Below are positions 1 through 39,590 of a stretch of DNA of 64,000 nucleotides, piece after piece. The notes beneath the pieces are model-generated. The model was not told where the DNA came from and searched no databases. It worked only from the letters and a program-made list of their open reading frames with translations. Positions within the stretch are counted from its first letter, which is position 1; the number at the start of each line of letters is the position of its first letter. The DNA comes from an uncultured Veillonellaceae bacterium. GTDB lineage: Bacteria > Bacillota > Negativicutes > JARBTT01. Both the position numbers and the translations under genes were made by a program. Location of the stretch: NCBI GenBank assembly GCA_963805085.1, contig CAWDTA010000004.1, positions 160,001 to 224,000 on the forward strand. The letters run 5' to 3'.

Positions 1-1528
<1,528 letters not shown>

Positions 1529-2167: not shown

Positions 2168-3841
<1,674 letters not shown>

Positions 3842-4052
3842 AATTTATTAGAAAGCCTAAAAGGCTCTTTAAATTCTTTGTTTCTTTATAATAAAGAAAT
3901 TGACTCGCGATTCAAGAACCGCGACGCAGCATCTCTGCTGCTAGTACTGACAGTTCACGAAGAACTGTGCAGTGCACATCTGGCATTAATTTTTTCTACA
4001 TTGTTTAGTTTTCAGAGAACACTTGCTAACGTCTTGCGTTGTCAGCTCATTT

Positions 4053-8702: not shown

Positions 8703-9506
8703 CTACTCGGTAACTCTCGCATATCTTTTGATGATATCATCATTTAGATTGAAGATCGCATCCATCAATCTAACTTTAAAGGTACCAATTCCTTCATTTT
8801 CCAAAAGCGATTCTACGGCAACCTCCCCAGCGATTCCCATACTCAACACACCAGATACGGCACCGACAAAAGTATCACCAACCGCACAATAACTTGCTAC
8901 TAAAGCTGTCGTCATACAGCCAGTACCAGTAACGCGCGTTAAAAAAGTATGCCCATTATGTATATGACAATGTTTGTCTTTGCAAGCAATAATATCTACT
9001 TGCCCTGTAACTGCTACCACACCATCAATTTGTTTAGCCAAGGCCTTAGCTGCCGTTTCTCCGCCATCACTTAGAGCGATAGAATCAACCCCCTTCACCT
9101 CGGTATCCAAACCACACAATACTTTTAATTCTGACATATTGCAGCGTATGACATCCGGTTTCACCTCAGCAATGATCCGTTTGGCAACTTCAGTGCGGTA
9201 CATTGTCGCTCCGACTCCAACTGGATCAAAAACAACTGGAATTCTCAGTGATTTAGCCCTATTTCCCGCGATGATCATAGCTTCTACTGTTTGTGAACTT
9301 AAAGTGCCAATATTGAGTACTAATGCTCTCGCATGACTTACCATCTCTGCAACTTCATTTACATCTTGCGCCATGACTGGTGAAGCACCAATTGCTAAAG
9401 TTATATTTGCACAATCATTTACACTAACATAATTGGTTATTTGATGAATCAGTGGACTGTCTTGTCTTACCTTATGTAACCTATTTGTCATTTGTTTTAT
9501 CATCAT
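8703..9506 (-). CDS. thiM: Hydroxyethylthiazole kinase
   Basis: ITNYVSVNDCAN, GASPVMA, DPVGVGA and VTGTGC motifs. Confidence 0.95.
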   Translation of the reverse strand: MMIKQMTNRLHKVRQDSPLIHQITNYVSVNDCANITLAIGASPVMAQDVNEVAEMVSHARALVLNIGTLSSQTVEAMIIAGNRAKSLRIPVVFDPVGVGATMYRTEVAKRIIAEVKPDVIRCNMSELKVLCGLDTEVKGVDSIALSDGGETAAKALAKQIDGVVAVTGQVDIIACKDKHCHIHNGHTFLTRVTGTGCMTTALVASYCAVGDTFVGAVSGVLSMGIAGEVAVESLLENEGIGTFKVRLMDAIFNLNDDIIKRYARVTE

Positions 9507-16832: not shown

Positions 16833-17074
16833 CAGCTTGTAGACATACTATGGACAGACAGGCCGCCGGCAGGCGATAAGCACCCATCTACGCCCTCCGA
16901 CAAGGTGCTGCTCGTCGACGTACAAAAGTACGACTCCTTCTCAACTCCTTGCTGCGCCTGGCATCTGAGCACTTCTCGCCAACCGGCAATCTATCTTCGT
17001 ACTAGTTTATAATTGGTACCAATTTAAATGTTTCTATTTATTAATGTAAATATTTCTACTTTGTCGACAATTTG
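16833..17074. mobile_element. Non-autonomous MITE with IS1182-like ends
   Basis: Terminal inverted repeats CAGCTTGTAGACA and TGTCGACAATTTG, each flanked by a similar 21-bp hairpin (16811-16831, 17076-17096); structured interior with no ORF. Confidence 0.6.
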
Positions 17075-17105
17075 AGACTCATGCTATGCATAAGCCTATT
17101 CTTTG

Positions 17106-17429
17106 TTATACTACATTTTTTAATAACCAAAATACAACCATACCAGTTACGATACTTTTCCCCAAAGACTTCGTTTTTAGCGAGACTGCCAAAACAATCA
17201 AAGACGCTATTAAATTAATATTCCCTAAACTCAAATTGAGTTTATTACCATCAATAAAAATTTCCGAAAATACCAACGCCCCAAACACTGATGTTGGCAC
17301 ATACGTTAACCACCGCTCTACAATCGGTGATAAGGTTGTTTTAGCAAGCAAAAAAGGCGGAACTACCCGCGGAATATATGAAACAACAAACATTCCTAAA
17401 ATACAATACATAACTTCCATACTAGTCAT
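17106..17429 (-). CDS. azlD: AzlD-family branched-chain amino acid exporter, small subunit
   Basis: GMFVVSYIPRVVP and WLTYVPTSVFGAL motifs; overlaps the azlC stop. Confidence 0.85.
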   Translation of the reverse strand: MTSMEVMYCILGMFVVSYIPRVVPPFLLAKTTLSPIVERWLTYVPTSVFGALVFSEIFIDGNKLNLSLGNINLIASLIVLAVSLKTKSLGKSIVTGMVVFWLLKNVV

Positions 17430-18108
17430 CTTTCGTGCCCCCTTCAATCATACAGCCAAGCGTAGCTGCAATGATGGTTGCTACAACAATATGTAATTTA
17501 TGCGTTAAAAATCCCGATAAAAACAGTGCCAGGACCCCTGATACTACTCCAATGATGATCTTTAGATTGTTCTCAAAATGATATGTCCAAAGCCCGATAA
17601 ACATAGCCGTCAATGTATACCCTACCACCGCAATATCAACAGGCAACACGTTACCCACGATATTTCCAAGCATCGTACTCAAAACCCAACAGCCATGCGC
17701 TAAAATATTTAGTGCCAAGGCACGATTGGCATCCCACTCGCCAGCACTAAATTCACTTAAATTCACGGCAAAGGTTTCATCAACAATTCCCTGCGTAAAA
17801 AAGCTAAAATATTTTTTTGACTGCCCCATTAAATATGCCGTTAATGTCGAACTATATAAAGTATGCCGTAAATTTACTATGAATGTCGTCAGCACAATCG
17901 AAGAAATAGATGCACCTCCACCAATCATGGAAAGCGCAATGAACTGCCCACTGCCCGCGAAAACAAGCACCGACATCATTGCCGTTTCCCACACACTTAC
18001 CCCGACCTTTTGTGCAAGTACCCCACAAGCAAAACCTAGTGGAAGATAACCAACACAGATCGGAAAAACTGCTTTTAAAACTTCTTTACTATATAAATTG
18101 CGTAAAAT
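17422..18108 (-). CDS. azlC: AzlC-family exporter, large subunit (probable ATT start)
   Basis: FPICVGYLPLGFACGVLA, FAGSGQF, VNLRH and DETFAV motifs; frame stays open upstream of the ORF-track GTG. Confidence 0.88.
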   Translation of the reverse strand: MLRNLYSKEVLKAVFPICVGYLPLGFACGVLAQKVGVSVWETAMMSVLVFAGSGQFIALSMIGGGASISSIVLTTFIVNLRHTLYSSTLTAYLMGQSKKYFSFFTQGIVDETFAVNLSEFSAGEWDANRALALNILAHGCWVLSTMLGNIVGNVLPVDIAVVGYTLTAMFIGLWTYHFENNLKIIIGVVSGVLALFLSGFLTHKLHIVVATIIAATLGCMIEGGTKDD

Positions 18109-18251
18109 ATTAACACCTTCTATTATTAAGCTAAATAAAGATTTTTCCTAACTTATTCGATGCACTATGTATACTGTCTGTTTATTATATCCGTTAGGTA
18201 CAAATTTTTCAATATCTTCCTTAAATTAATTGGAAATTTAGGACAAATCAC

Positions 18252-18275
18252 GACAAGGTGGCGGTTATTTTTGTC
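18252..18275 (+). repeat. REP-like motif, left of RAYT
   Basis: GACAAGGTGGCGGTTATTTTTGTC; matches the reverse complement of 19081-19104 at 22 of 24 positions. Confidence 0.85.
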
Positions 18276-19028
18276 TTATTTTGTTATTTTATTTATCTTA
18301 TCCTTATTAATTCCCGTGATCTCTGCCAACTTTCTTAGTGGCAAATTTGTTTTCTCTTTAAATTTTTTCAGTTTCTCTTCTAAGCTTTCTTCACTTTTTG
18401 CAAGCTCATTCCATAACTTTATTGCTTGGCTTTCTTCCATTTGATTTGCTTTTTCATCTATTTCAATAAATTTATCTTCTTCTTTCATCTTTGTGAATTT
18501 GATAAACTCTTCTCTTTCTTCCTTTTTCTCTTCTGAAAATATTCCGAGAACTAGTTCTTTATCTATTGCTTTTGCTAAAACAGTATCTTCTTCTATATAG
18601 GCCTTATAACTACTCCATTTATATTTTTCTACTCTTTTCACTATGCCTGCTTTGACTGGGTTTTTATGAATATACCTTGTTGCCATTAATAGATAGCTAT
18701 CATCTTCTATTTTTTCGCTTCTATATCTATCTTGAAATAGGTGGCCTGTCTTCTTATATTTCTTATTAAAATAAAAGACATAGCTAACATTGATTCGTTT
18801 CATTATATTAGCTATGTATTCTTCTCTTTCTTGCAATAGTAAATGGGCATGATTATCCATTATGCAAAATGCTATAAGACCATATCTGTTATTTTCTTTT
18901 TTCGTTTTTAGTATTTCTATAAAGTACATTTTATCTTGGCCATCCATGAATATATCTTTTCGAGCGTTACCTCTTATCATTATATGGTTATATCCTGTAT
19001 TACTTTTATCTCTTTGTTGTATTGGCAT
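18276..19028 (-). mobile_element. REP-associated tyrosine transposase (RAYT; HUH/Y1, IS200-like)
   Basis: HIMIRGN, FCIMDNHAHLL (HUH), GHLFQDRYRS and YIHKNPVKAG motifs; C-terminal HTH-like segment; intact ORF. Confidence 0.92.
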
Positions 19029-19080
19029 GATAATCCGCTCCTTTTTCTCTCAGATTATCATGCCAAATTAATTTAGTCAA

Positions 19081-19104
19081 GACAAAAAGAACCGTCACCT
19101 TGTC
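19081..19104 (-). repeat. REP-like motif, right of RAYT
   Basis: GACAAAAAGAACCGTCACCTTGTC; inverted partner of 18252-18275. Confidence 0.85.
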
Positions 19105-19129
19105 TTAAAAAAAACAGATTTTAGAGCTG

Positions 19130-19315
19130 GATAGGATTCGTGTACCCATTTTTAAGTGGAAATGAAGAAGATTTTTGCTTTTTAGGCAGGTACTTTATCC
19201 TCCCTCTTAGCACCCCGCATTTTGACGATGCACCGAGAGTTTCTACCCAGTCTTTTGGTCAGTTACCGGGATAGGACTTTCATTCACAAGTATAATCCAG
19301 CTTCGCTGGACAAGC
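19130..19315 (-). mobile_element. Degenerate 5' fragment of a group II intron
   Basis: Reverse complement GCTTGTCCAGCGAAGCTGG...GAATGAAAGTCCTATCCCGGTAAC resembles a group II 5' end and domain I start; no RT ORF or domain V/VI visible. Confidence 0.6.
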
Positions 19316-19331
19316 GGTATTCAAAAGGGCA

Positions 19332-22186
19332 TTAACGAATAGTTACCGTTTCATCTAACGAATACATTTTTTTGCAGAATGTGGAAATTTTATTACAAGT
19401 TTTAGGATCAAGCAACAACATCATGTGACTAGAAGAATCTACATCTATTATATTAAAATTTGGAAGTTGTTGTTCCCATTCCCCCCAATATTTTGTATGA
19501 TCAAGTAAAATTTTGTCTTCTGCATTTGCTACAAATTCACCAAAGAAGACTCCGTTCTTATTACGAAAATAATAACAAGTTACTGTTTGAGGGTAGGTTA
19601 ACGGTAAGATGCTAAAGTGATTGAGTTTATATGCCTGCTGAACTTTTACATTATTTTGAATCCGTTCGCGTAATAGAGCTTCCGTTTTGGCTAATCCACG
19701 TGCTTTGGCAAGTATAACCACTTGCTGCAAAAAAAATTCATCATCTGCATTCAAATCCACTTCCTCTTGACGGATTATTATTTGTGCCGATTTTTCCGGT
19801 TCTTGCCGGATCATAGGCATGAGCTCCATGTTAACTGCTTGTAAAATCAAATCTTTAGGAAATAAATTTACTTTCCTCATGCCAATACTATCTGGTGAAT
19901 CCAGCATAACAATCGTATTGACATTTTGTCCTACCCCTTGCAATTGGCGTGTAATTTCATATGCTAGAGCTCCACCCAGAGAAAAACCACCTAAATCATA
20001 TGGTCCCTCTAATTGTACTGATTGAATTATATGAACGTAATAAGAAGCCATTGCCTGAATTCCTTCTAAAGGAGAACCACCGGTCATCCACCCTCGTGCT
20101 TGTATACCATAGAAAGGGCGCTGACTTTTCTGGGCAATGCTTTGATATCCTTCAACTCCACCGCCCCCTCCATGAAGCCAAAATACAGGCCGTCCTTGAG
20201 AAACCTGATTAAGGTGTATCAGCTCTGGGAACTGAGACCAATTGTTTCTATTTAAATCTGGTTCTAAACTAATTCTCTTCTCTGTGTAAGATTTATTGTT
20301 ATTTTCCTTATCGGCTATATATTTTTCTTCCTTGGCAGAATACATTGCTTTAGGAACAGGATAAAGTTGTTTTTGAAAACAATATGTTGGTAACGATATA
20401 CGATAAACATTATATGAATGAAAGAATGTTTTCCAAGAAATATTTGAGCCTTGTACCCATAATTTTGCTAATTTATGCCATGAATGATTGTTCAAATAGC
20501 TTTGAACCTGAGCCGCCTCACAGTTTTCATTCATCGTATTAGCATCCACATTAGCAGTTGAAATAATATCGGCAGATATTTCACTGTTTAAAAATTGTCG
20601 AAATTGTTTAACTAATGTTTTAAGATTATCGGTTATAAATACTACTCGTTCAGAAAACGCTACTCTACCAATGCAAAGTGTAAACATTATATTGGACAAA
20701 GTATAATTAGTCTCCCATTGTGCATCAAGATTTTGATACCTTTCAATGAATTCGATATAGTTTTCGATAGTTCGCTGAAGCTGATAGTTTGTTTTGGACG
20801 ATAATGGAATAAAATAAGAATCTAATTTTTGTTCCTCGGTATTCTCTACAATATGTTCTTCCAAAATAAGATGCCCATTGTTACCGCCGTTATCAATGGA
20901 TGATATCATTGCCCGACGCGGCATTGAAAACTGTTTATTATTAACCGTTAGAACAGGTGGTATCCATTCTGTTGTTGATGTTTGAAAATAGAACGGGGAA
21001 TCTTTTATATTTATATTTGATCCTATTTTGGGCAAATTAATTAACGGAATAAACATTTTCGTTTTAAACTGCAGCAATACTTTTGTTAATTGTAGTAATG
21101 TAGATACGGCTTCACCATGTCCAATAATAGATTGTACTGACCCAATCGGACAAAATTGCTTTTCATTAGTGAACTGATTAAACGCTAATATTAAACCTTC
21201 AAATTCAGCAACATCACTTATAGATGATCCATTGGATGCTGCTTCCATATAATTTATGGTTGCTGGATGTATCCCTGCTTTTTTAAAATTAGTTTGAATA
21301 AGTTTAGCTTGCTGTTTTGGATCGGGGACCATAAACTTTGGCGGATTTTCTTCATGACAAATATGACAGGATTTAATAACTGCATAAATATGATCCTTGT
21401 CTAGTAAAGCCTGTTGTAGTGGTTTCAGCAAAATGGATACAACTCCTTCAGCTAACACCCGGTCATCGTCTGATCAGTGCATAGGTTCGGATCAAGAATA
21501 TTTGCTCCAATAACTAATGCCGTTTGGCATTCTTTTCGCATTAAGCTTTGACCTGCCAAGTGAATCGCCGTTAAGGAAGAACAAGCACCCTCACTTACAA
21601 TTAAAGCTGGACCTTGAAAATTAAAAAAATCGGCTATTCTATCATTTAATATATGGGAATGGTTTGTAGTTTGATATTTACTAGGTGTTATCCCAGTAAA
21701 TATTCCTACTGAATTGCCTAATTCTTCAAAAGTATAACCTGCATCTTCAATACAAGACCACACTGTTTCTAACGCAAGACACTCTCGATGATCCATAATA
21801 GATATTTCATCAGAAGTTAAATCAAAAAAAGATGCATCAAATGTATCATGCGCTTAAAAAAAAGTGCCAAATTTATAACACTTTTTATGAAGATATAAAG
21901 AATCATTAGTTGGAAAATCATGGTGTTCATCACAGTACCATTGGTGCTCCAGAATTTTCTTGATAAATTTTGTTCCTTGTTTAAGTTTCAGCCAAAACTC
22001 ATAGTGATTATCTGCCTGTGGATACCGTCCATTCAAACCAATAATAGCGATATCATACTGTTGAATCTTTTTTGTTTCCTCAAATTCTAACTTCTCAGTC
22101 CTCGTTTGAGTAACTGCTTCATATAAAGATTGTTGTTGTTCTTCTGTTAATAGTGCTACTAGATCCTTTAAATTTTGTCTAGACAT
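19332..22186 (-). pseudogene. Decayed trans-AT-type PKS gene (ketosynthase plus thioesterase)
   Basis: KS motifs DIAIIGLNGRYP, ACSSL, EGVVSILLKPL and IGHGEA, plus TE GFSLG, split by an in-frame TAA (21854-21856) and a frameshift near 21460. Confidence 0.85.
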
Positions 22187-22312
22187 GATTAACAATTACC
22201 TCCATACTTTGTTAAAAAATTCATTCAGCTTATCATAAATAATTCTGTTCATCTTAGCATGGTAAACCCAATGAAATCGCAAAAATGATTGCTCTTCATA
22301 ATTATAAAGATA

Positions 22313-22362
22313 TCATGATATGATGCTGCATCAACCAATTAGGATACAGCATCATATCATGA
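22313..22362. terminator. Long hairpin, probable terminator
   Basis: TCATGATATGATGCTG...CAGCATCATATCATGA inverted repeat. Confidence 0.55.
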
Positions 22363-22495
22363 CTAACATTATTATATAAGCCATTTTTGTTGACCCGCTT
22401 GCGGCTCTTACGCAAATGATAAATTGTAGTTTTCCGGGGTGATAATCCCGCGATTTTTAATGATGCTTAGCAAATAGTCTGTGAACAATGGTTTC

Positions 22496-23716
22496 CTATT
22501 CATTTGAACTACCTCTGAAAGCTACTAAATACATTATAATAGATAAAATAATGAGGATAGCTGAAACGTTGTATATGTAAATAAATCCAAACACTTGTGC
22601 CACACTGCCCCAAAGAACAGAGCCAACCATTATTCCTAAGTCCATTGCACATAGATATGTTGCATTAGCCATTCCTCGTCTTTCCGCAGGTGCAAAAGAT
22701 ATAACTAATGCATTTAGGGTTGGCTGAACTACACCGAAACCAATGCCATAAATTACAGCAACGATAAGAAATATTGGCAACGAAGGAGCTACAGACAACA
22801 GCTTCAGGGCAATTGCTAATAAAAGCATGCCAGAAACCACTATTTTGGAGCTTCCATGTCGGTCAGCAAATCGACCAAATGTTAACCTGACAAATATTGT
22901 AGCCAGTGAACTAACTATAAAAAATATTCCAATATTTGCTATACCTTTCTCATTCGCATATGCAGGTAAGAAGACTCCTACGGTGGAGTAAGTCATCATA
23001 ACGATAAAAAATAAAAAAGATGGCCACATTGCTGTTTTTTCAAAAACCAATATCTTGTTTTTTTGCCCTGCTTTATGTTCAATTTTTTTAATAAGTGGAG
23101 GCTCTGTACTTATTTGATTAAGGTAGCGATTTTGCCATAAACTAGTAAGTAATGCTAATACAATGAAGAAAGCTGAAAGAAGAAAAAGTAATATATAATT
23201 ATAATGCTCCAATACGTATAATCCTAAGCCAGGACCGAGAGCTATAGCAACTGAGTTTGATATTCCAAAAAAGCCCATTCCTTCAGTTCTGCGGCTGGCT
23301 GGAATCAGATCAGAGGCTATGGTACTGACTGACGTGGTGGTTGCACTCCAACTTATTCCGTGTATCGCTCTCAGTATTAACAGCAGAATAACTGAATATG
23401 CCACCGCATTGTAAGAGAGCGTTGCCAGCAGCAGCACAGTCAGACTCGTAAGCATAATTGACTTTCTTCCTTTTTGATCTAGCAGACCTCCAATCTTTGG
23501 ACGAGCTATGAAACCGGTTAAATAATAAATACCGGATACTAGCCCCGCCATTATTTTGTTTTCCCCAATGTTTAAAACATGTAAAGGTAAAGTTGACAGT
23601 AACATAAAATTTCCCAGATAGGCAAGGAAATTCACCAGTATGGTAAAAACAAAAGCTGTCGACCATAAGTTCTCCTGAACACCTGCCTCCTGATTTGCTA
23701 TAAGCATTCCTTTCAA
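22496..23716 (-). CDS. MFS transporter
   Basis: GGLLDQKGRK and GRFADRHG motif-A repeats; about 12 TM helices. Confidence 0.92.
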   Translation of the reverse strand: MKGMLIANQEAGVQENLWSTAFVFTILVNFLAYLGNFMLLSTLPLHVLNIGENKIMAGLVSGIYYLTGFIARPKIGGLLDQKGRKSIMLTSLTVLLLATLSYNAVAYSVILLLILRAIHGISWSATTTSVSTIASDLIPASRRTEGMGFFGISNSVAIALGPGLGLYVLEHYNYILLFLLSAFFIVLALLTSLWQNRYLNQISTEPPLIKKIEHKAGQKNKILVFEKTAMWPSFLFFIVMMTYSTVGVFLPAYANEKGIANIGIFFIVSSLATIFVRLTFGRFADRHGSSKIVVSGMLLLAIALKLLSVAPSLPIFLIVAVIYGIGFGVVQPTLNALVISFAPAERRGMANATYLCAMDLGIMVGSVLWGSVAQVFGFIYIYNVSAILIILSIIMYLVAFRGSSNE

Positions 23717-23938
23717 AACGATCATCCTCCCTATAAGCACTATACCTTCAGGAATATTGCAGACTTAATTCTTAGTATTCCTACTGGTTTAATAGTGATT
23801 AATTTACAGTTTTATACTATTCTTACTTAAATAATTTGTCAAGCTTAATAATAGTGGTTACTTCCACTTGGCATGTTGTGATTTCAGTGCAACTTTCTTT
23901 AAGGAAGAGACCTGTGGGTTAAGGATTCTAACTTATTA

Positions 23939-24430
23939 CTAAAAGAGAAAATCGTCTGAGGTCAATTTTATGTCTTTACCCTTTTCTCTAGCAATACGAA
24001 GTAATTGTTCTGTTTTTGTTTCCGGAGAAATATGTAAAACTGATCGGCGTAACATGGTCCGGGCACTATTAGGGCAGGCAGTGGCGCATAGACCACAACC
24101 GATGCACATTTGCTCATTAAACTCCGGCGCTTCTTTTCCGTTGCCCACGCTGCTCATACTAATGGCATTCATAGGGCATTTTTTAGTGCATTCACCACAT
24201 CCTTTGCAACGATTCAGATCAATAGACGGAATGAAATTGCTGGGGTGTGTACCTAATACTCCAGATTGCCTGGATGCACCAAAAACTTCACAACAGCAGC
24301 TACAACAGTGACACATGAACACTGGTTGATTAAGTACATTGTCAACTTGGTGAACTAAACCAAATTTTTCAGTTTGATCCAACAACTGTAACATTTCGTC
24401 CACAGTAGCCGGCTTACCTCCCCCCCCCGT
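23939..24430 (-). pseudogene. 5'-truncated 4Fe-4S dicluster protein
   Basis: GLVH...CHCCSCCC and two CxxCxxCxxxCP motifs; the ORF-track N-terminus is antisense IS sequence. Confidence 0.8.
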
Positions 24431-24465
24431 CGCGCGCACCATTGCCCAAATTCGCCTAGACTCTG

Positions 24466-25220
24466 TGGACAATTGCGTAAAAACAAGGTAGTTGTGAACA
24501 AGAAAAAAGTACAACGCATTGTACAAAAACTTGGCATTCAAGTAACTTCATTTACACGTAAGAGCAGAAAGTATAATTCTTACAAGGGAAGAATCGGAAA
24601 AATTGCACCAAATAGACTTCACCGACGTTTTAATACAAATGTTGTTCATCAAAAAATCACAACAGATACATCTGAGTTTAAGTATTATGAAATTGATGAT
24701 AAAGGAAGAGTGATAATTAAAAAGCTTTATCTTGATCCATTCATGGATCTTTGCAATTGAGAAATCATAAGTTATGGTATTTCGCAGAGTTCTTCGGCTG
24801 AAAACATCATGAAAGCATTAAATGATGCTATAGATATGACTTCAGACTGTAAATACAGAAGAACGTTTCATTCTGATCAAGGATGGGCTTACCAGATGAA
24901 AGCTTATTCACATACATTAAAAGCTAATAGAATATATCAAAGTATGTCGCGCAAAGGAAACTGTTATGATAATTCTGTAATGGAAAACTTCTTTGGAATT
25001 ATGAAACAGGAAATGTATTACGGAGTTGTTTATCATAGCTATAATGAATTGAAATCTGCGATTGAAAAATACATAAAATATTATAATGAACAAAGAATCA
25101 AGCAAAATCTAGGATGGATGAGTCCTGTTGAATATAGACTCAATCTCCTAGCTGCATAAAGAAATAGCGTAACAGCTAAAACTGCTACGCTATAAAGTCT
25201 AACTTATAGGGGTCACCTCA
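24466..25220 (+). mobile_element. IS3-family (IS150-like) 3' remnant
   Basis: OrfB motifs NKKKVQRI, TDTSEF, HSDQGWAY and SMSRKGNCYDNSVMENFF; in-frame TGA at 24758-24760; right end AAAGTCTAACTTATAGGGGTCACCTCA. Confidence 0.9.
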
Positions 25221-25233
25221 GCTCTCTAATCTG

Positions 25234-25543
25234 TGAAATGGACCCTTCGTCAAGGACAATTTGAAAAAGAGCCTATGCAATATTAAGAAGATGATTTCTG
25301 TATTGAACAGGAGTCATCTTTTTTAAATTCCATTGGTATCTATAATTATTGTAGTAAATCATGTATTGCTTTATTTCATTTTTTAACTGTTCTAACGTAT
25401 CACATTTTTTTATATAAGCTTCATCTTTGAAATTACCAAAGAAAGATTCCTGTGGTGCATTATCCCAGCAATTTCCTCTCCTTGACATAGACTGACCCAA
25501 TCCAACTTTTTTAACCAATTTCTGAAATATAGGGCTGGTATAA
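25234..25543 (-). mobile_element. IS3-family 3' remnant
   Basis: QSMSRRGNCWDNAPQESFFG and YYNNYR motifs; terminal TGAAATGGACCC...GGACAA. Confidence 0.88.
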
Positions 25544-25860
25544 TCGACTAAAGCCTATCAGTTAATGTTAATAGATAAAGGCATTATCCCAAGTATGTCA
25601 CGAAAGGGGAACTATTGGGATAATGCCTTAGCCGAAAATTTCTTTAGTCATTTTAAATATGAGTGTTTACATATTCGTAAACGAGCAATAAATTCATATG
25701 AAGATGCTAAAGAAATTGTAGAAGAATATTTATATTATTATAATAATGAACGTTTTCAAGCTCGGTTAAAGGGGATGTCTCCCGTTAGTAATAGAAATCA
25801 ACATAAAAAAAAATGTTATTTTCTATATAGGGATAGTGTCCGGATTTTTGAAGCACTGCA
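25544..25860 (+). mobile_element. IS3-family 3' remnant
   Basis: SMSRKGNYWDNALAENFF and YYNNERFQARLKGMSP; probable end TGTCCGGATTTTTGAAGCACTGCA. Confidence 0.85.
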
Positions 25861-25876
25861 CAATGTCCCCTTGTCC

Positions 25877-26194
25877 CTATATCGTTTTATTTTCTGCGAA
25901 ATTATTCCAGTCGAACTTTGGATAATCCATCTTTTGGGCTTTGATTTCCTCCTCTAATGATTCCTTATATATTTTCGCATAGGTAATTTCTCTAAACTCT
26001 TCTAATGAAATTTCGTCAGCTATTTCATTGACCTGACCAACTAGCGAAAAATTATATATATTAACTGCATCTTGCCACTTGATCATCACATATTCTTTGC
26101 AATCTAAATCTGTAAGCAATTTAACTGTAAAATCAGTGTTCTCTACTTCCTTGGCAATAATCGTGTCTTTTGGTGTTCTATAGATTCTATACAT
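25877..26194 (-). CDS. Hypothetical protein (105 aa)
   Basis: GAGG RBS, plausible composition, no recognised family; bracketed by REP-like motifs. Confidence 0.65.
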   Translation of the reverse strand: MYRIYRTPKDTIIAKEVENTDFTVKLLTDLDCKEYVMIKWQDAVNIYNFSLVGQVNEIADEISLEEFREITYAKIYKESLEEEIKAQKMDYPKFDWNNFAENKTI

Positions 26195-26433
26195 TTACAG
26201 AACCTCTGTTTTCCCAAAAAACATATCTTGTCCCTTGTAAATAGAATGAACCTCTCCCCTTGGTTGTGGCGAGGAGGCTTCCTCGCCACACGCTGGTGCG
26301 ATACCTTGCCCATAGCTTTTTACTACCTTGTACTGTTACCAATTTATTTCCCCCTTCATCATTCTGCACGTGGTTTCTTCTATCCGCTGATGCAGATAGA
26401 AAAAACCAACATACAGTTTGTTTCAGGAGAAAT

Positions 26434-26699
26434 TAAAAAAGCGCATGCGTGGGTTTTCCAACCTACACATGCGCTATACTTCATCTTGATTGCATGCAGA
26501 CGCTAAGCCTCTGCCAAAACTTCAATCGTATTATACCAAGCGAACGGACTATCTCCCTTGTAATCAAGGGAAAAGCACGGTATAATAAATTGTCGTCGTA
26601 GACAGCTAGCTGTTACGTGTAGGTGCTCTTTCACCTGCTCGTGCCTGAGAGTGCTTCAACACTCTCGGGACACGGCGACTTTTTTAATTTCCACCTTAT
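26434..26699 (-). ncRNA. Putative structured leader or ncRNA ending in an intrinsic terminator
   Basis: TTGCAA-16-TATAAT promoter (26733-26706), stacked hairpins, terminator GCGCATGTGTAGGTT..AACCCACGCATGCGC followed by U6. Confidence 0.5.
26592..26685 (+). ncRNA. Putative ~95-nt cis-antisense cloverleaf RNA
   Basis: TTGTAA-17-TATAAT (26558-26586); 5' GTCGTCGT pairs with 3' ACGGCGAC, followed by U6; three internal hairpins. Confidence 0.6.
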
Positions 26700-26861
26700 T
26701 CCTTAATTATATTACATTTCTTAGCGATTGCAAGTAAAAGTAAAGTGAAATATGACTTTTTATCGCAAAAATCATGTTTTTTTATTGTATTCTTTAAATT
26801 ATCTCCAACGATGAGGGGACGGAATGCAGTTGTCTTGCTATTGTATAAAATATAAGCAATA

Positions 26862-27070
26862 CAGATAAATTGACATAAGAAAATCTTCCAATCAAGGCAT
26901 CACAGACGAATCTTACTATAATGTAGCTTTGAAGGCTTTCTGTTTGACCGAAGGGAGTTTAGCCTTCATTGCGGTCTTGGAATTAGCACTCACCTATGAT
27001 TCGTCTTTTGCGGACTTGCAGTTTTTCGTTGCAACTTATCTGTTTTTTTCAGCATAAAACTTTTATCTCT
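26862..27070. repeat. Dispersed ~200-bp palindromic repeat, copy 1
   Basis: Colinear similarity to 36980-37188 (AGACGAATCTTA, TAGCTTTGAAGGCTTT, TGTTTGACCG.A.GGAGTTTA, GTCTTTTGC). Confidence 0.85.
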
Positions 27071-27088
27071 TTCGATAATCTAAACTCT

Positions 27089-28315
27089 TCACTCAGCAAA
27101 ATTCCCATTTTTAAAAACAGCAACTTCTTTCCCCTCATAGGTCACACCAATGATATCAAGATCTTCTGTCCCAATCATAAAATCTTCATGAATCAGTGAA
27201 TCATTTACACCAGCTTTTCCCAACTCGGCTGGTGACATCGTATCGCCGTTTTTGATACAAACTGGATACGCTTTACCGAATGCCAAATGGCAAGATGCAT
27301 TTTCATCAAATAAGGTATTATAAAACAAGATATTTAAATTAGAAATTGGCGAATCATATGGTACAAGGGCAACCTCACCTAAATAACTTGCACTATCATC
27401 AGCTTCCAGAAGCTTTTGTAAAATCGCCTGCCCTTTTTTCGCCGAATATTCAACGACTTTACCATCTTTAAACTTAAGCTTAAAGTTCTCAATCAGATTT
27501 CCATGATAGTTCAATGGTTTTGAACTCACGACGGTACCGTTAACGCCATTACGTTTTGGCATACTAAAAACTTCTTCAGTCGGCATATTGGCAATGAATT
27601 CTCTACCTTCTGGTGTATACTCTGCGCCACTAAGCCAAATATGACCTTCCGGTAATTCCACCGTCAAATCTGTACCAATGCTATTTTTATATTTTAAATA
27701 TTTAAAATTATAATCATTCATTCTATCTTTACTTTTCTTCAATGCTGCTTGATGCTTTACCCAGGCTTCCACTGGATCACCTTCGCCCACGCGAACTGTT
27801 TGTAAGATAGCCTGCCAAAGTTTATCCACCGCTACTTCTACACTATCGTTCGGGAATATCTTTTGTGCCCAAGCCTTAGTCGGAATAGACACTACGCACC
27901 AAGTATTTTTATTGCTCATCATCCGTTCACGATATTCTTTTAACGCATTCCCACTCACTTTTTGGGCACGAGCAATCCGATCGGGATTTACATCCTTTAA
28001 AATTTCTGGATCAGATGCTGCAATCGAAACAAACGCTGCATCTTGTCTTGCATAACCTAGATAAAATTCTTTACGCCACTCTGGAAACTCATCAAAAACT
28101 TCTTCTGCTGCTTTGTTAAAACGAATTTTATTTAATATTTCATCATTCCAATTCACAACGACATCTTTTGCTCCCGCATCATAAGCAGCCTCCGCCACCC
28201 GACGCGCAAAATCAGCGCATTCAATTGGTGAATTGATTACAAGAATTTGATTTTTTTGAATATTAACCCCTGTTTTCACTATTAATTTTGCGTATTTTTC
28301 CAATTTTTCGTTCAC
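27089..28315 (-). CDS. pepS: M29 aminopeptidase (PepS/AmpS)
   Basis: ANMPTEEVF, YLGEVALV, FDENASCHLAFG and HEDFMIG motifs. Confidence 0.93.
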   Translation of the reverse strand: MNEKLEKYAKLIVKTGVNIQKNQILVINSPIECADFARRVAEAAYDAGAKDVVVNWNDEILNKIRFNKAAEEVFDEFPEWRKEFYLGYARQDAAFVSIAASDPEILKDVNPDRIARAQKVSGNALKEYRERMMSNKNTWCVVSIPTKAWAQKIFPNDSVEVAVDKLWQAILQTVRVGEGDPVEAWVKHQAALKKSKDRMNDYNFKYLKYKNSIGTDLTVELPEGHIWLSGAEYTPEGREFIANMPTEEVFSMPKRNGVNGTVVSSKPLNYHGNLIENFKLKFKDGKVVEYSAKKGQAILQKLLEADDSASYLGEVALVPYDSPISNLNILFYNTLFDENASCHLAFGKAYPVCIKNGDTMSPAELGKAGVNDSLIHEDFMIGTEDLDIIGVTYEGKEVAVFKNGNFAE

Positions 28316-32260: not shown

Positions 32261-32362
32261 AGCAGAGTAAATATTTGTGCGTTAAGTGTCAGATGAACGG
32301 GGAGTTGTCACTGAACGAAAAACTACGTTGGTAGTTTGCGGTACAAGTATTGCATCCCGCTG
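32261..32362 (+). promoter_or_regulatory. THF riboswitch
   Basis: GCAGAGTA...TGCGTTAAGTG...GAACGGGGAGTTG...ACGAAAA...TTTGCGGTA...GCATCCCGCTG matches the THF aptamer pattern; lies upstream of folT. Confidence 0.92.
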
Positions 32363-32424
32363 TTACATAAGAGAGAACTCCTCTATATGTAGCAACGCAA
32401 AATTATACTATGGAGGTGTCCTTA

Positions 32425-39418: not shown

Positions 39419-39590
39419 AAAAGCCTTTCGGCAGACTTCACCGAAAGGCATAACAATACTACTTTTACCTTCCGTCTTAGTCTTTAAGATCTAAGCGGAT
39501 AAATGAATTTTATTCAATTCCATTTCATCCAATGCTGTTAAGTTTCCATCGTGTAACTCTCTTCCAAGATGTTACCGAATTACTTAACAA
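39419..39590 (-). promoter_or_regulatory. pan RNA motif leader with terminator
   Basis: Bulged hairpins GGTAACATCTT..AGAGTTAC and CCGCTTAGATCT..AGACTAAGACGG, then terminator GCCTTTCGG..CCGAAAGGC-U5; promoter TTGTAT-17-TAATAT (39623-39595). Confidence 0.75.

Follow-up and report, generated by a model that had tools for sequence, protein, structure and literature searches.

A probable TIRtron, complete between its own terminal inverted repeats, in a mobile-DNA island of a Veillonellaceae genome, and related motifs at the ends of gene blocks elsewhere

We analyzed a window of 64,000 nucleotides from an uncultured Veillonellaceae bacterium (contig CAWDTA010000004.1); the genome that holds it (4.21 Mb in five contigs, C1 to C5) is referred to as G000, and coordinates given without a contig are those of the window. 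Positions 18252-19104 most probably constitute an autonomous IS-like TIRtron, named here TIRtron-A, i.e. a TIRYT gene (TnpAY1 subclass 2.1, or RAYT Group 1) lying within its own 24-bp repeats. As part of the same reading, the motif-like sites at the distal end of the neighbouring azlC-pepS island are separate from it, and the island is a pile-up of mobile DNA. With TIRtron-A, a known but little-studied family gains a new member of unusually active appearance.

The 250-residue product of the gene, TIRYT-A, matches the Pfam family Y1_Tnp (PF01797) with 55.7 bits (cut-off 23, E 6.7e-15). Its translation contains NHAH at residues 59-62 (the HUH motif being H60-A61-H62), FQ at 98-99 (F98-Q99) and YIHKNP at 119-124, with Y119. 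The C-terminal tail is rich in lysine and glutamate, and gives a weak match to the helix-turn-helix family HTH_19 (E 0.015, residues 218-248). The repeats at 18252-18275 (plus strand) and 19081-19104 (minus strand) are inverted and identical at 22 of 24 positions. The stop codon (18276-18278) directly adjoins the left repeat, with 0 bp between them, and the start codon lies 52 bp from the right one. With up to 3 mismatches the 24-mer has two matches in the window, both being these repeats, while none of 100 shuffled sequences contained any match. A preliminary description of this DNA, made from the letters alone, had reported an intact HUH/Y1 transposase between 24-bp inverted motifs and a stop codon abutting the left motif; both statements are borne out.

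The TnpA-Y1 family has been divided into subclasses, class 2 being marked by a Y---NP tyrosine motif (PMC6006769). According to the sections of that paper devoted to subclass 2.1, these proteins have a median length of 238 aa and end in an HTH-like tail, their motifs being NHVH or NH[YF]H, FQ or W[EQ], and Y[IV]HLNP; they are found without REPs, are equated by Quentin et al. 2018 with the TIRYTs of Di Nocera et al., and are aligned in Table 1 with Group 1 of the RAYTs of Bertels et al. 2017 (PMC5581495). The same Table 1 gives TIRYTs as the largest RAYT-like subclass, present in 14.9% of strains with a mean of 1.9 per genome. The part of Bertels et al. 2017 dealing with Group 1 places it in Clostridia and, comparing the true RAYT groups, gives it the highest rate of duplicates and the most IS-like character (PMC5581495). 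In the account of Di Nocera, De Gregorio & Rocco 2013, as far as it concerns repeat structure, TIRYT genes sit within terminal inverted repeats sharing the core GGGGWSAS, the whole being called TIRtrons (PMC3733652).

Like this subclass, TIRYT-A has the class-2 Y---NP arrangement and is flanked by terminal inverted repeats, not REPs. Its signature comes near that of the subclass (NHAH, FQ and YIHKNP against NH[VYF]H, FQ and Y[IV]HLNP), as do its length (about 240-250 aa) and its weakly matching HTH-like tail. Ten of 12 full-length homologues (31-42% identity, from other Bacillota or Atribacterota records) are also flanked by repeats, which match at 20 or more of 22 positions, and 8 of these 10 have in common the core GGGACGGTYC. 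The repeat core is G-rich here as well: that of TIRtron-A, GGTGACGG, fits the published GGGGWSAS at 6 of 8 positions, and that of the paralogous B-type, GGGGACAG, at all 8.

The label of RAYT/REP system given in the preliminary description holds for the RAYT lineage, the HUH/Y1 enzyme and the inverted motifs, but not for the association with REPs. The NCBIfam model REP_Tyr_transpos (NF047646) scores 75.6 bits, under its cut-off of 80, and a hairpin with a GT[AG]G foot, looked for at the TIRtron-A repeats, is absent. As a single strand the left repeat folds weakly (-2.1 / -1.7 kcal/mol, z about -1), and the TIRtron-A repeats overall range from -1.7 to -3.7 kcal/mol (z -1.0 to -1.7). REPtrons, in which a RAYT (TnpA-REP) is associated with REPs or REPINs as in E. 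coli and Pseudomonas, belong to the same superfamily, have the class-2 Y---NP motif, and likewise consist of a gene bracketed by short inverted repeats that recur genome-wide, often directly after genes. They differ by their GT[AG]G foot and strong palindrome; moreover the sites here number tens and not hundreds, are clustered, and accompany a multi-copy gene. Membership of IS200/IS605 was also considered, and rejected. The HUH/Y1 chemistry is presumably common to both, and both are small elements with many full and partial copies. But the tyrosine motif here is YIHKNP instead of Y---Q, the protein is about 100 aa longer (250 aa against about 150), the ends are inverted repeats and not two subterminal hairpins on the same strand, and there is no tnpB.

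A second complete TIRtron-A lies at C2 537705-538557 and corresponds to window 18253-19105 with 93.1% identity over 853 bp. Its flanks are unrelated, and the similarity ends within 1 nt of the window repeats. Seven partial copies were detected by blastn, as was this second copy (C2 545818-546308, C4 216-525, C5 17272-17748, C5 23126-23598, C5 28128-28433, C5 35631-35739 and C2 1953637-1953873). At the protein level tblastn returned 28 segments in G000; 25 matches have an E of 1e-10 or below; 12 of them are near full length, and an internal stop interrupts two of the 12. Of the 31 genomes searched, 13 others were positive, with 1-6 matches apiece, and the published mean of 1.9 per genome is likewise far exceeded. 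About 10 paralogues in G000 carry repeats of their own, and among the paralogous subfamilies inspected the majority possess a distinct repeat: GGGACAAGGGGACAGGTTTGCTGTCCC for B, AGGGGACGTTCCTTTTTCGTCAAC for C and TGTCAAGGGGACGGGGTTATTGACA for D. TIRtron-B (C2 548222-549075) has two copies with 88-89% identity in G004, a genome of a different genus, and the homology extends exactly from the outermost base of one repeat to the outermost base of the other. Sharp ends at the repeats, several copies, many fragments and the B-type copies across genera show, at the level of sequence comparison, that TIRtrons move as discrete units. Near-identical copies, and copies in another genus whose ends are exact, speak for mobility at present, a point that is not shown in the passages on TIRYTs of PMC3733652, PMC6006769 and PMC5581495. 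We found in the literature, as far as the accessible portions of it go, no report on the activity, mobility or role of TIRYTs, a name that is itself used in 2 of about 8.4 million papers searched.

The motif itself recurs in the genome, as had been proposed. The A-type 24-mer has 22 sites in G000 at up to 4 mismatches. For a weight matrix we used 34 sites of the genome, with 5 mismatches at most and with the two window repeats among them: 39 sites score 20 bits or more against 0.0 expected in a first-order Markov genome, 64 score 12 bits or more against 16.8 expected, and 1329 positions score 0 or more. Searched in 401 genomes of the class, the repeat pattern has 28 matches in G000 and 1-4 in each of five others, whereas the reversed pattern used as control gives 2 matches in total across those genomes. 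Published TIRYT repeat families are similarly described, in the part of the literature concerned, as "moderately abundant" and occurring single, paired or clustered.

For the three distal sites, presented earlier as degenerate copies of the 24-bp motif, the result is the opposite: scanned with the matrix, their best placements lie deep in the background (-11.7 at 25861-25876, -10.5 at 26240-26263 and -17.8 at 26810-26834, against 36.2 and 41.7 for the repeats of TIRtron-A). At the first of these sites there is nevertheless a real repeat, of the paralogous B-type. The exact 14-mer GGGACAAGGGGACA at 25864-25877 is the start of a 27-nt repeat whose intact counterpart (C2 554270-554296) leads into a TIRYT-B gene; it matches once in the window, and one of 100 shuffles contained any match. 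The similarity to another copy of the IS3 element stops at 25861, where the B-type repeat is truncated, so that the idea of a motif cut by an IS3 end was correct and its attribution to the A-type was not. The second site is an internal stretch of a module of about 900 bp, upstream of a 105-aa open reading frame (ORF), and is kept in 11 of the 12 other copies of that module. The third falls within the roughly 50 unique bp that separate the end of the module (26810) from a miniature inverted-repeat transposable element (MITE, 26862-27042), and as a motif copy it is unsupported by the sequence. The suggestion that the 26240 and 26810 motifs bracket a structured RNA falls with them. It is thus highly probable that the three distal sites do not form a single system with the TIRtron-A repeats. 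That the MITE might be bounded by 26810-26834 was considered and rejected: its own 13-nt ends differ, and 16 other copies have unrelated left flanks.

The island lies between azlC and pepS, and these anchors are confirmed by G001, a genome of the same genus with 91% identity in the flanks, where azlC is followed by about 100 bp and then pepS. The 8.85 kb at 18240-27088 have no counterpart in G001, and therefore appear as a pile of insertions. The spacer holds 600 bp with one small ORF in G004 and about 4 kb in a further genome, G019. Only the left-hand breakpoints of the island fall at the repeat. From left to right the island consists of TIRtron-A, a copy of a polyketide synthase (PKS)-MFS-FeS locus, three IS3 fragments, the stump of a B-type repeat, the 900-bp module and the MITE. 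The locus from which the PKS block derives (C2 1503338-1508683) is intact and encodes a 957-aa KS-TE polyketide synthase, a 414-aa MFS transporter and a 380-aa Fe-S protein. In the island copy the MFS gene (22496-23740) is undamaged, whereas the PKS is broken into three ORFs (21854-22195, 21452-21796 and 19332-21458) and the Fe-S gene is cut short. Pfam integrase families (rve, rve_2, rve_3) match at 24809-25159 and 25565-25957, the middle IS3 fragment being assigned by eye; by blastn, 25541-25861 corresponds to C2 1510092-1509771 with 91.6% identity. The MITE has about 25 blast matches in G000 (76-85% identity) and is multi-copy in G001 too.

Two breakpoints of the island touch TIRtron-A and the remaining ones do not. 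Between the left repeat and the left limit of the island there are 0-12 nt. The duplicated PKS block begins beyond the right repeat, at a distance of 2-4 nt, where the source locus continues with unrelated sequence. The far end of the PKS block is the IS3 junction (24463/24464), and the right limit of the island is about 40 bp past the MITE. The claim that the island edges coincide with the motif is therefore valid on the left, while the other breakpoints belong to the IS3 fragments, the module and the MITE. We read the island as an insertion hot spot that was probably filled by several unrelated mobile elements, not by cassettes. The proposal that the motifs delimit cargo cassettes here does not stand, the cargo being a decayed 95% copy of an intact locus and the distal motifs being unrelated; an integron-like reading appears wrong for the azlC-pepS island.

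Elsewhere in G000 and in its relatives, comparison of sequences lends real support to motifs delimiting exchangeable cargo, with counter-examples present. On C1 an intact rumA gene (310549-311916) is followed, up to about 348000 (loci L001 and L002), by an array of blocks lying between R-type and L-type motifs. The R-type (TACAAGG...) is identical to the TIRtron-A repeat at 23 of 24 positions; the L-type begins GACTGAG. The blocks are separated by 460-bp units made of an L motif, the last 237 nt of rumA with the terminator, and an R motif, and the junction of the L motif with the rumA piece (GTCTG|CAGAC) is a 10-bp palindrome. One slot of the array is empty (38 bp). The cargo includes, by Pfam, a YhcG nuclease, an AAA_23/SMC-like three-gene set, an MBL protein and a 5823-aa collagen-like protein, and the cargo of such arrays is often defence-like. 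A related arrangement exists in G004 (C7 3764986-3772300, L077), with rumA, an R motif, a GmrSD gene, IS elements, a degenerate L motif and a 444-nt piece of rumA. In G019 an R motif stands alone after rumA; an R-type motif is found 3' of rumA in three genera.

The region C2 2.045-2.105 Mb contains 14 sites of at least 12 bits, for about 0.24 expected, and 12 of the 14 have one orientation. Five sites lie within 100 nt past a stop codon, and behind several of the 14 comes a palindromic terminator of 63 bp. In G004 the syntenic locus varies just as much, with R and L motifs at the ends of blocks. For one slot of this region we could compare G000 with L101, a locus from a metagenomic relative: the flanks are common to both, and between R and L the relative has 6.1 kb of other genes and G000 a nine-gene block. 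At both motifs homology runs out 0-2 nt from the outer end. An account in which only the units of motif, rumA piece and motif (L-X-R) are MITE-like and the cargo is old chromosome was rejected as a full explanation, because the R-to-L DNA differs wholly between G000 and L101 and breaks at the motifs. As a separate observation, the 63-bp near-perfect palindrome (AACAAATAGAGCATGTAC...GTACATGCTCTATTTGTT, followed by a T-run) is present at C2 2059181-2059243 and at 7 sister sites, some 60 nt past L-type motifs. An ORF of about 100 aa that is DUF6809-like (E 2.2e-5, just under the Pfam cut-off) often comes after it.

A third, large array is formed by junction modules of 110-150 bp, in which a motif resembling the A-, B- or C-type repeat is followed after about 45 nt by a terminator hairpin. 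Of 47 copies in G000, 34 are in C2 1,382,401-1,477,202, all in one orientation with a spacing of about 2.8 kb, mostly after single genes; 25 of these (counted from the table of modules) are at most 450 nt past a plus-strand ORF. In 20 kb of this array little but the modules is shared with G001 and G004, the modules of the latter being clustered at C7 2.557-2.620 Mb. By its sequence organization this region looks like a sedentary cassette array. For the integron integrase model TIGR02249, however, the best score in G000 is 46.4 bits for a cut-off of 265, and both hits are distant from the arrays (C2 943 kb and C5 313 kb). An Rfam search of 40 kb of the large array (L126 and L127, C2 1,440,000-1,479,999) gave nothing on the junction module; its matches were two pieces of group II introns, both under threshold, and miRNA hits due to chance. 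These intron pieces are at L126 5792-5898 (C2 1445791-1445897, 45.2 bits for a threshold of 49) and 9046-9118 (C2 1449045-1449117, 37.7 for 40), and a maturase-like fragment was noticed by eye after an L motif in the metagenome contig L121; group II introns may be further guests of the array junctions.

A metagenome scan with the 17-mer GACTRAGTGACGGTTCT returned 33 loci, four of which have a 24-nt site of at least 25 bits (L101, L102, L116 and L121). Blast comparisons with G000 covered four loci (L101, L102, L107 and L121), each of which has matches to it; the remaining loci look like chance matches, many being in DNA of 55-69% G+C. Some of these comparisons provide the counter-examples. A block that G000 shares with G004 and L107 ends 5 nt from R and starts 70-90 nt inside L. 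Of the splB block shared with L121, one end lies 16 nt from L and the other coincides with no motif. Moreover the orientation of genes to motif differs among the three arrays.

We tentatively consider, as a possibility short of an even chance, that TIRYT repeats may also be recombination sites of a cassette-array system without integron integrase, multi-copy Y1 enzymes acting in trans. Modules with A-, B- and C-type motifs in at least three hypervariable arrays, and breakpoints at the outer base of the motif, speak for it. The likeness to integrons (IntI/attI/attC, sedentary ones included) lies in the dozens of imperfect-palindrome modules in one orientation with 1-3 genes between them, in a cargo that is hypervariable between relatives, and in the 38-bp empty slot. 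The differences are the missing integron integrase, an enzyme family that would be HUH/Y1 instead of a tyrosine recombinase, and junction modules in which RYYYAAC/GTTRRRY boxes are lacking when judged by eye. The phrase "an integron built on a Y1 nuclease", used in the preliminary description, is inadequate for the azlC-pepS island and would, on this reading, apply to arrays elsewhere in the genome. Motif-bounded arrays were looked for in the literature on TIRYT, TIRtron and TnpAY1, on HUH/Y1 cassettes and on rumA hot spots, paper supplements being outside this search, and no description was found; nor do the TIRYT passages of the three papers on the family describe repeat-like motifs bounding exchangeable gene blocks.

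Several points weigh against TIRtron-A as an autonomous element beside an unrelated insertion pile. Recognition of a hairpin as in IS608 is not evident from the weak predicted folds of the repeats (-1.7 to -3.7 kcal/mol). A phmmer search of TIRYT-A against PDB sequences gave no solved relative at E of 0.01 or below, which leaves family membership as the sole basis of the structural analogy. The core of the A-type repeat deviates from the published consensus at 2 of 8 positions. For TIRtron-A alone no transposition intermediate, target duplication or empty site was seen: the empty site of G001 lacks the whole island, and its diverged spacer places the left junction only within 0-12 nt. Finally, the PKS block at 2-4 nt from the repeat and the motif-bounded cargo elsewhere leave room for cargo moved by the enzyme here. 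In our main reading, and by analogy with the TnpA of IS200/IS605 and with TnpA-REP of E. coli, the enzyme would bind its repeat as single-stranded DNA, cut at its outer foot via a 5'-phosphotyrosine intermediate, and then rejoin the ends. The position of the PKS block against the right repeat would, in the same reading, come either from recombination between two TIRtron-A copies or from transposition carrying flanking DNA along. We regard it as improbable that TIRYT-A captured or shuffled PKS-MFS-FeS as cargo defined by its repeats, e.g. by one-ended read-through of the right repeat, with a far boundary since lost to IS3. The start of the block just outside the right repeat, where the source locus has unrelated sequence, the left limit of the island no more than 12 nt away from the left repeat, and the cargo blocks that elsewhere end 0-2 nt from such motifs would all fit. 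But no second A-type site exists anywhere in 19105-27088, the distal end is an IS3 junction, and homologous recombination between dispersed TIRtron-A copies accounts equally well for a breakpoint at the repeat. Besides, the block is 5% diverged and decayed, which makes the event an old one with its end gone.

It is less probable still that the gene is a domesticated, immobile RAYT whose REP-like sites serve the host (transcript ends, genome structuring), as has been proposed for RAYT Groups 2 and 3. Such a role would agree with the intact gene, with REP_Tyr_transpos as closest NCBIfam model and with the many motif sites directly downstream of genes. The gene is however multi-copy with some copies truncated, the whole unit is missing at this site in G001, the repeats fold weakly without a GT[AG]G-footed hairpin, NF047646 stays under its cut-off, and Group 1 is the most IS-like of the true RAYT groups in the relevant section of Bertels et al. 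2017 (PMC5581495). For the rumA-linked repeats of C1, the alternative is ordinary site-specific integration at the rumA 3' end by elements that carry a serine or tyrosine recombinase of their own, the 24-nt motifs being small independent insertions or parts of att sites, unlinked to TIRYT. The 3' end of rumA is indeed an established insertion site for transposons and for integrative and conjugative elements with serine recombinases, as stated in the portion of PMC11578063 that concerns it; the palindromic junction of the L motif with the rumA piece, and the different lengths of this piece in G004 (444 nt) and G000 (237 nt), point the same way. Yet this seems rather unlikely, since no recombinase was recognised among the listed array ORFs of at least 75 aa (7 of them Pfam-scanned), the R-type motif is nearly identical to the TIRtron-A repeat, and repeats of three TIRYT subfamilies hold the same position in the junction modules.

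From G000 come clean evidence that TIRtrons are mobile as separate units, natural substrates for biochemistry in the form of A-, B- and C-type repeats with the L and R variants, and a testable hint that TIRYT repeats serve as junctions for swapping blocks of genes, many of them defence-like. Should this last idea be correct, integron-like gene arrays could arise in a second way that has no mechanistic relation to the first; otherwise the locus is a common insertion hot spot, and the finding is a well-documented example of a family already known.

The 900-bp module of the island is itself multi-copy, with 12 further full-length copies (79-96% identity; e.g. C2 554283-555181 and C1 348559-349466) plus partial ones. 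In 4 copies a TIRYT gene is within 131 bp of the module, the window copy bears the repeat stump, and one TIRtron is located inside a terminator hairpin of the module. Its 105-aa ORF, previously taken for an orphan gene ending at a motif, does stop at the truncated B-type repeat, but it is no orphan: the family has 20 matches in G000 and occurs in 11 of 121 genomes of the class and in 3 of 59 genera. It diverges fast (47-95% identity between copies), and no family was matched in Pfam or NCBIfam. The non-coding part contains a predicted small RNA preceded by a promoter-like TTGTAA-17-TATAAT (26581-26586) that is close to consensus. Among its 22 distinct copies from G000, G001 and G004 hardly anything varies apart from two hairpin loops, which differ in nearly every copy; compensatory changes are found in 3 of the 37 predicted pairs. 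An Rfam search of 25800-27200 gave no match at E of 1 or below. We therefore consider 26592-26686 a real candidate for a structured RNA outside the described Rfam families, and variation limited to the loops suggests that they may be specificity determinants.

Table 1. Coordinates of the features in the window
Feature	Position	Strand	Basis or remark
TIRtron-A, complete, 853 bp	18252-19104	-	blastn copy and repeats at both ends
Left terminal inverted repeat, GACAAGGTGGCGGTTATTTTTGTC	18252-18275	+	at the 3' end of the gene; weight matrix 36.2 bits
Right terminal inverted repeat, GACAAGGTGACGGTTCTTTTTGTC	19081-19104	-	52 bp upstream of the start codon; 41.7 bits
TIRYT gene, 250 aa	18276-19028	-	Pfam PF01797 Y1_Tnp
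Truncated TIRtron-B-type repeat, GGGACAAGGGGACA...	25864-25877	-	exact 14-mer, start of a 27-nt repeat
azlC	17422-17994		left anchor of the island
pepS	27089-28315		right anchor of the island
Decayed duplicate of PKS (KS-TE) / MFS exporter / Fe-S locus	19107-24463	-	95.1% over 5369 bp to C2 1503338-1508683
IS3-family integrase-core fragments	24473-25159; 25273-25518; 25565-25861	+; -; +	within 24464-25861
Multi-copy module, about 900 bp	25877-26810		105-aa ORF and divergent non-coding part
105-aa ORF	25877-26194	-	no Pfam or NCBIfam family
Predicted small RNA, about 95 nt	26592-26686	+	four-way fold, U-tract terminator; ends and strand predicted from the sequence alone
MITE, 181 bp, 13-nt terminal inverted repeats CAGATAARTTGCA	26862-27042		17 copies with at least 150 bp aligned
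16S rRNA	2174-3842		Rfam
23S rRNA, part	1-1528		Rfam
THF riboswitch	32261-32364		Rfam
pan motif	39468-39578		Rfam

Outside the island, a segment of about 70 nt at 17001-17076 is repeated at least 5 times in G000 with 80-90% identity, and is also present in G001 and G004.

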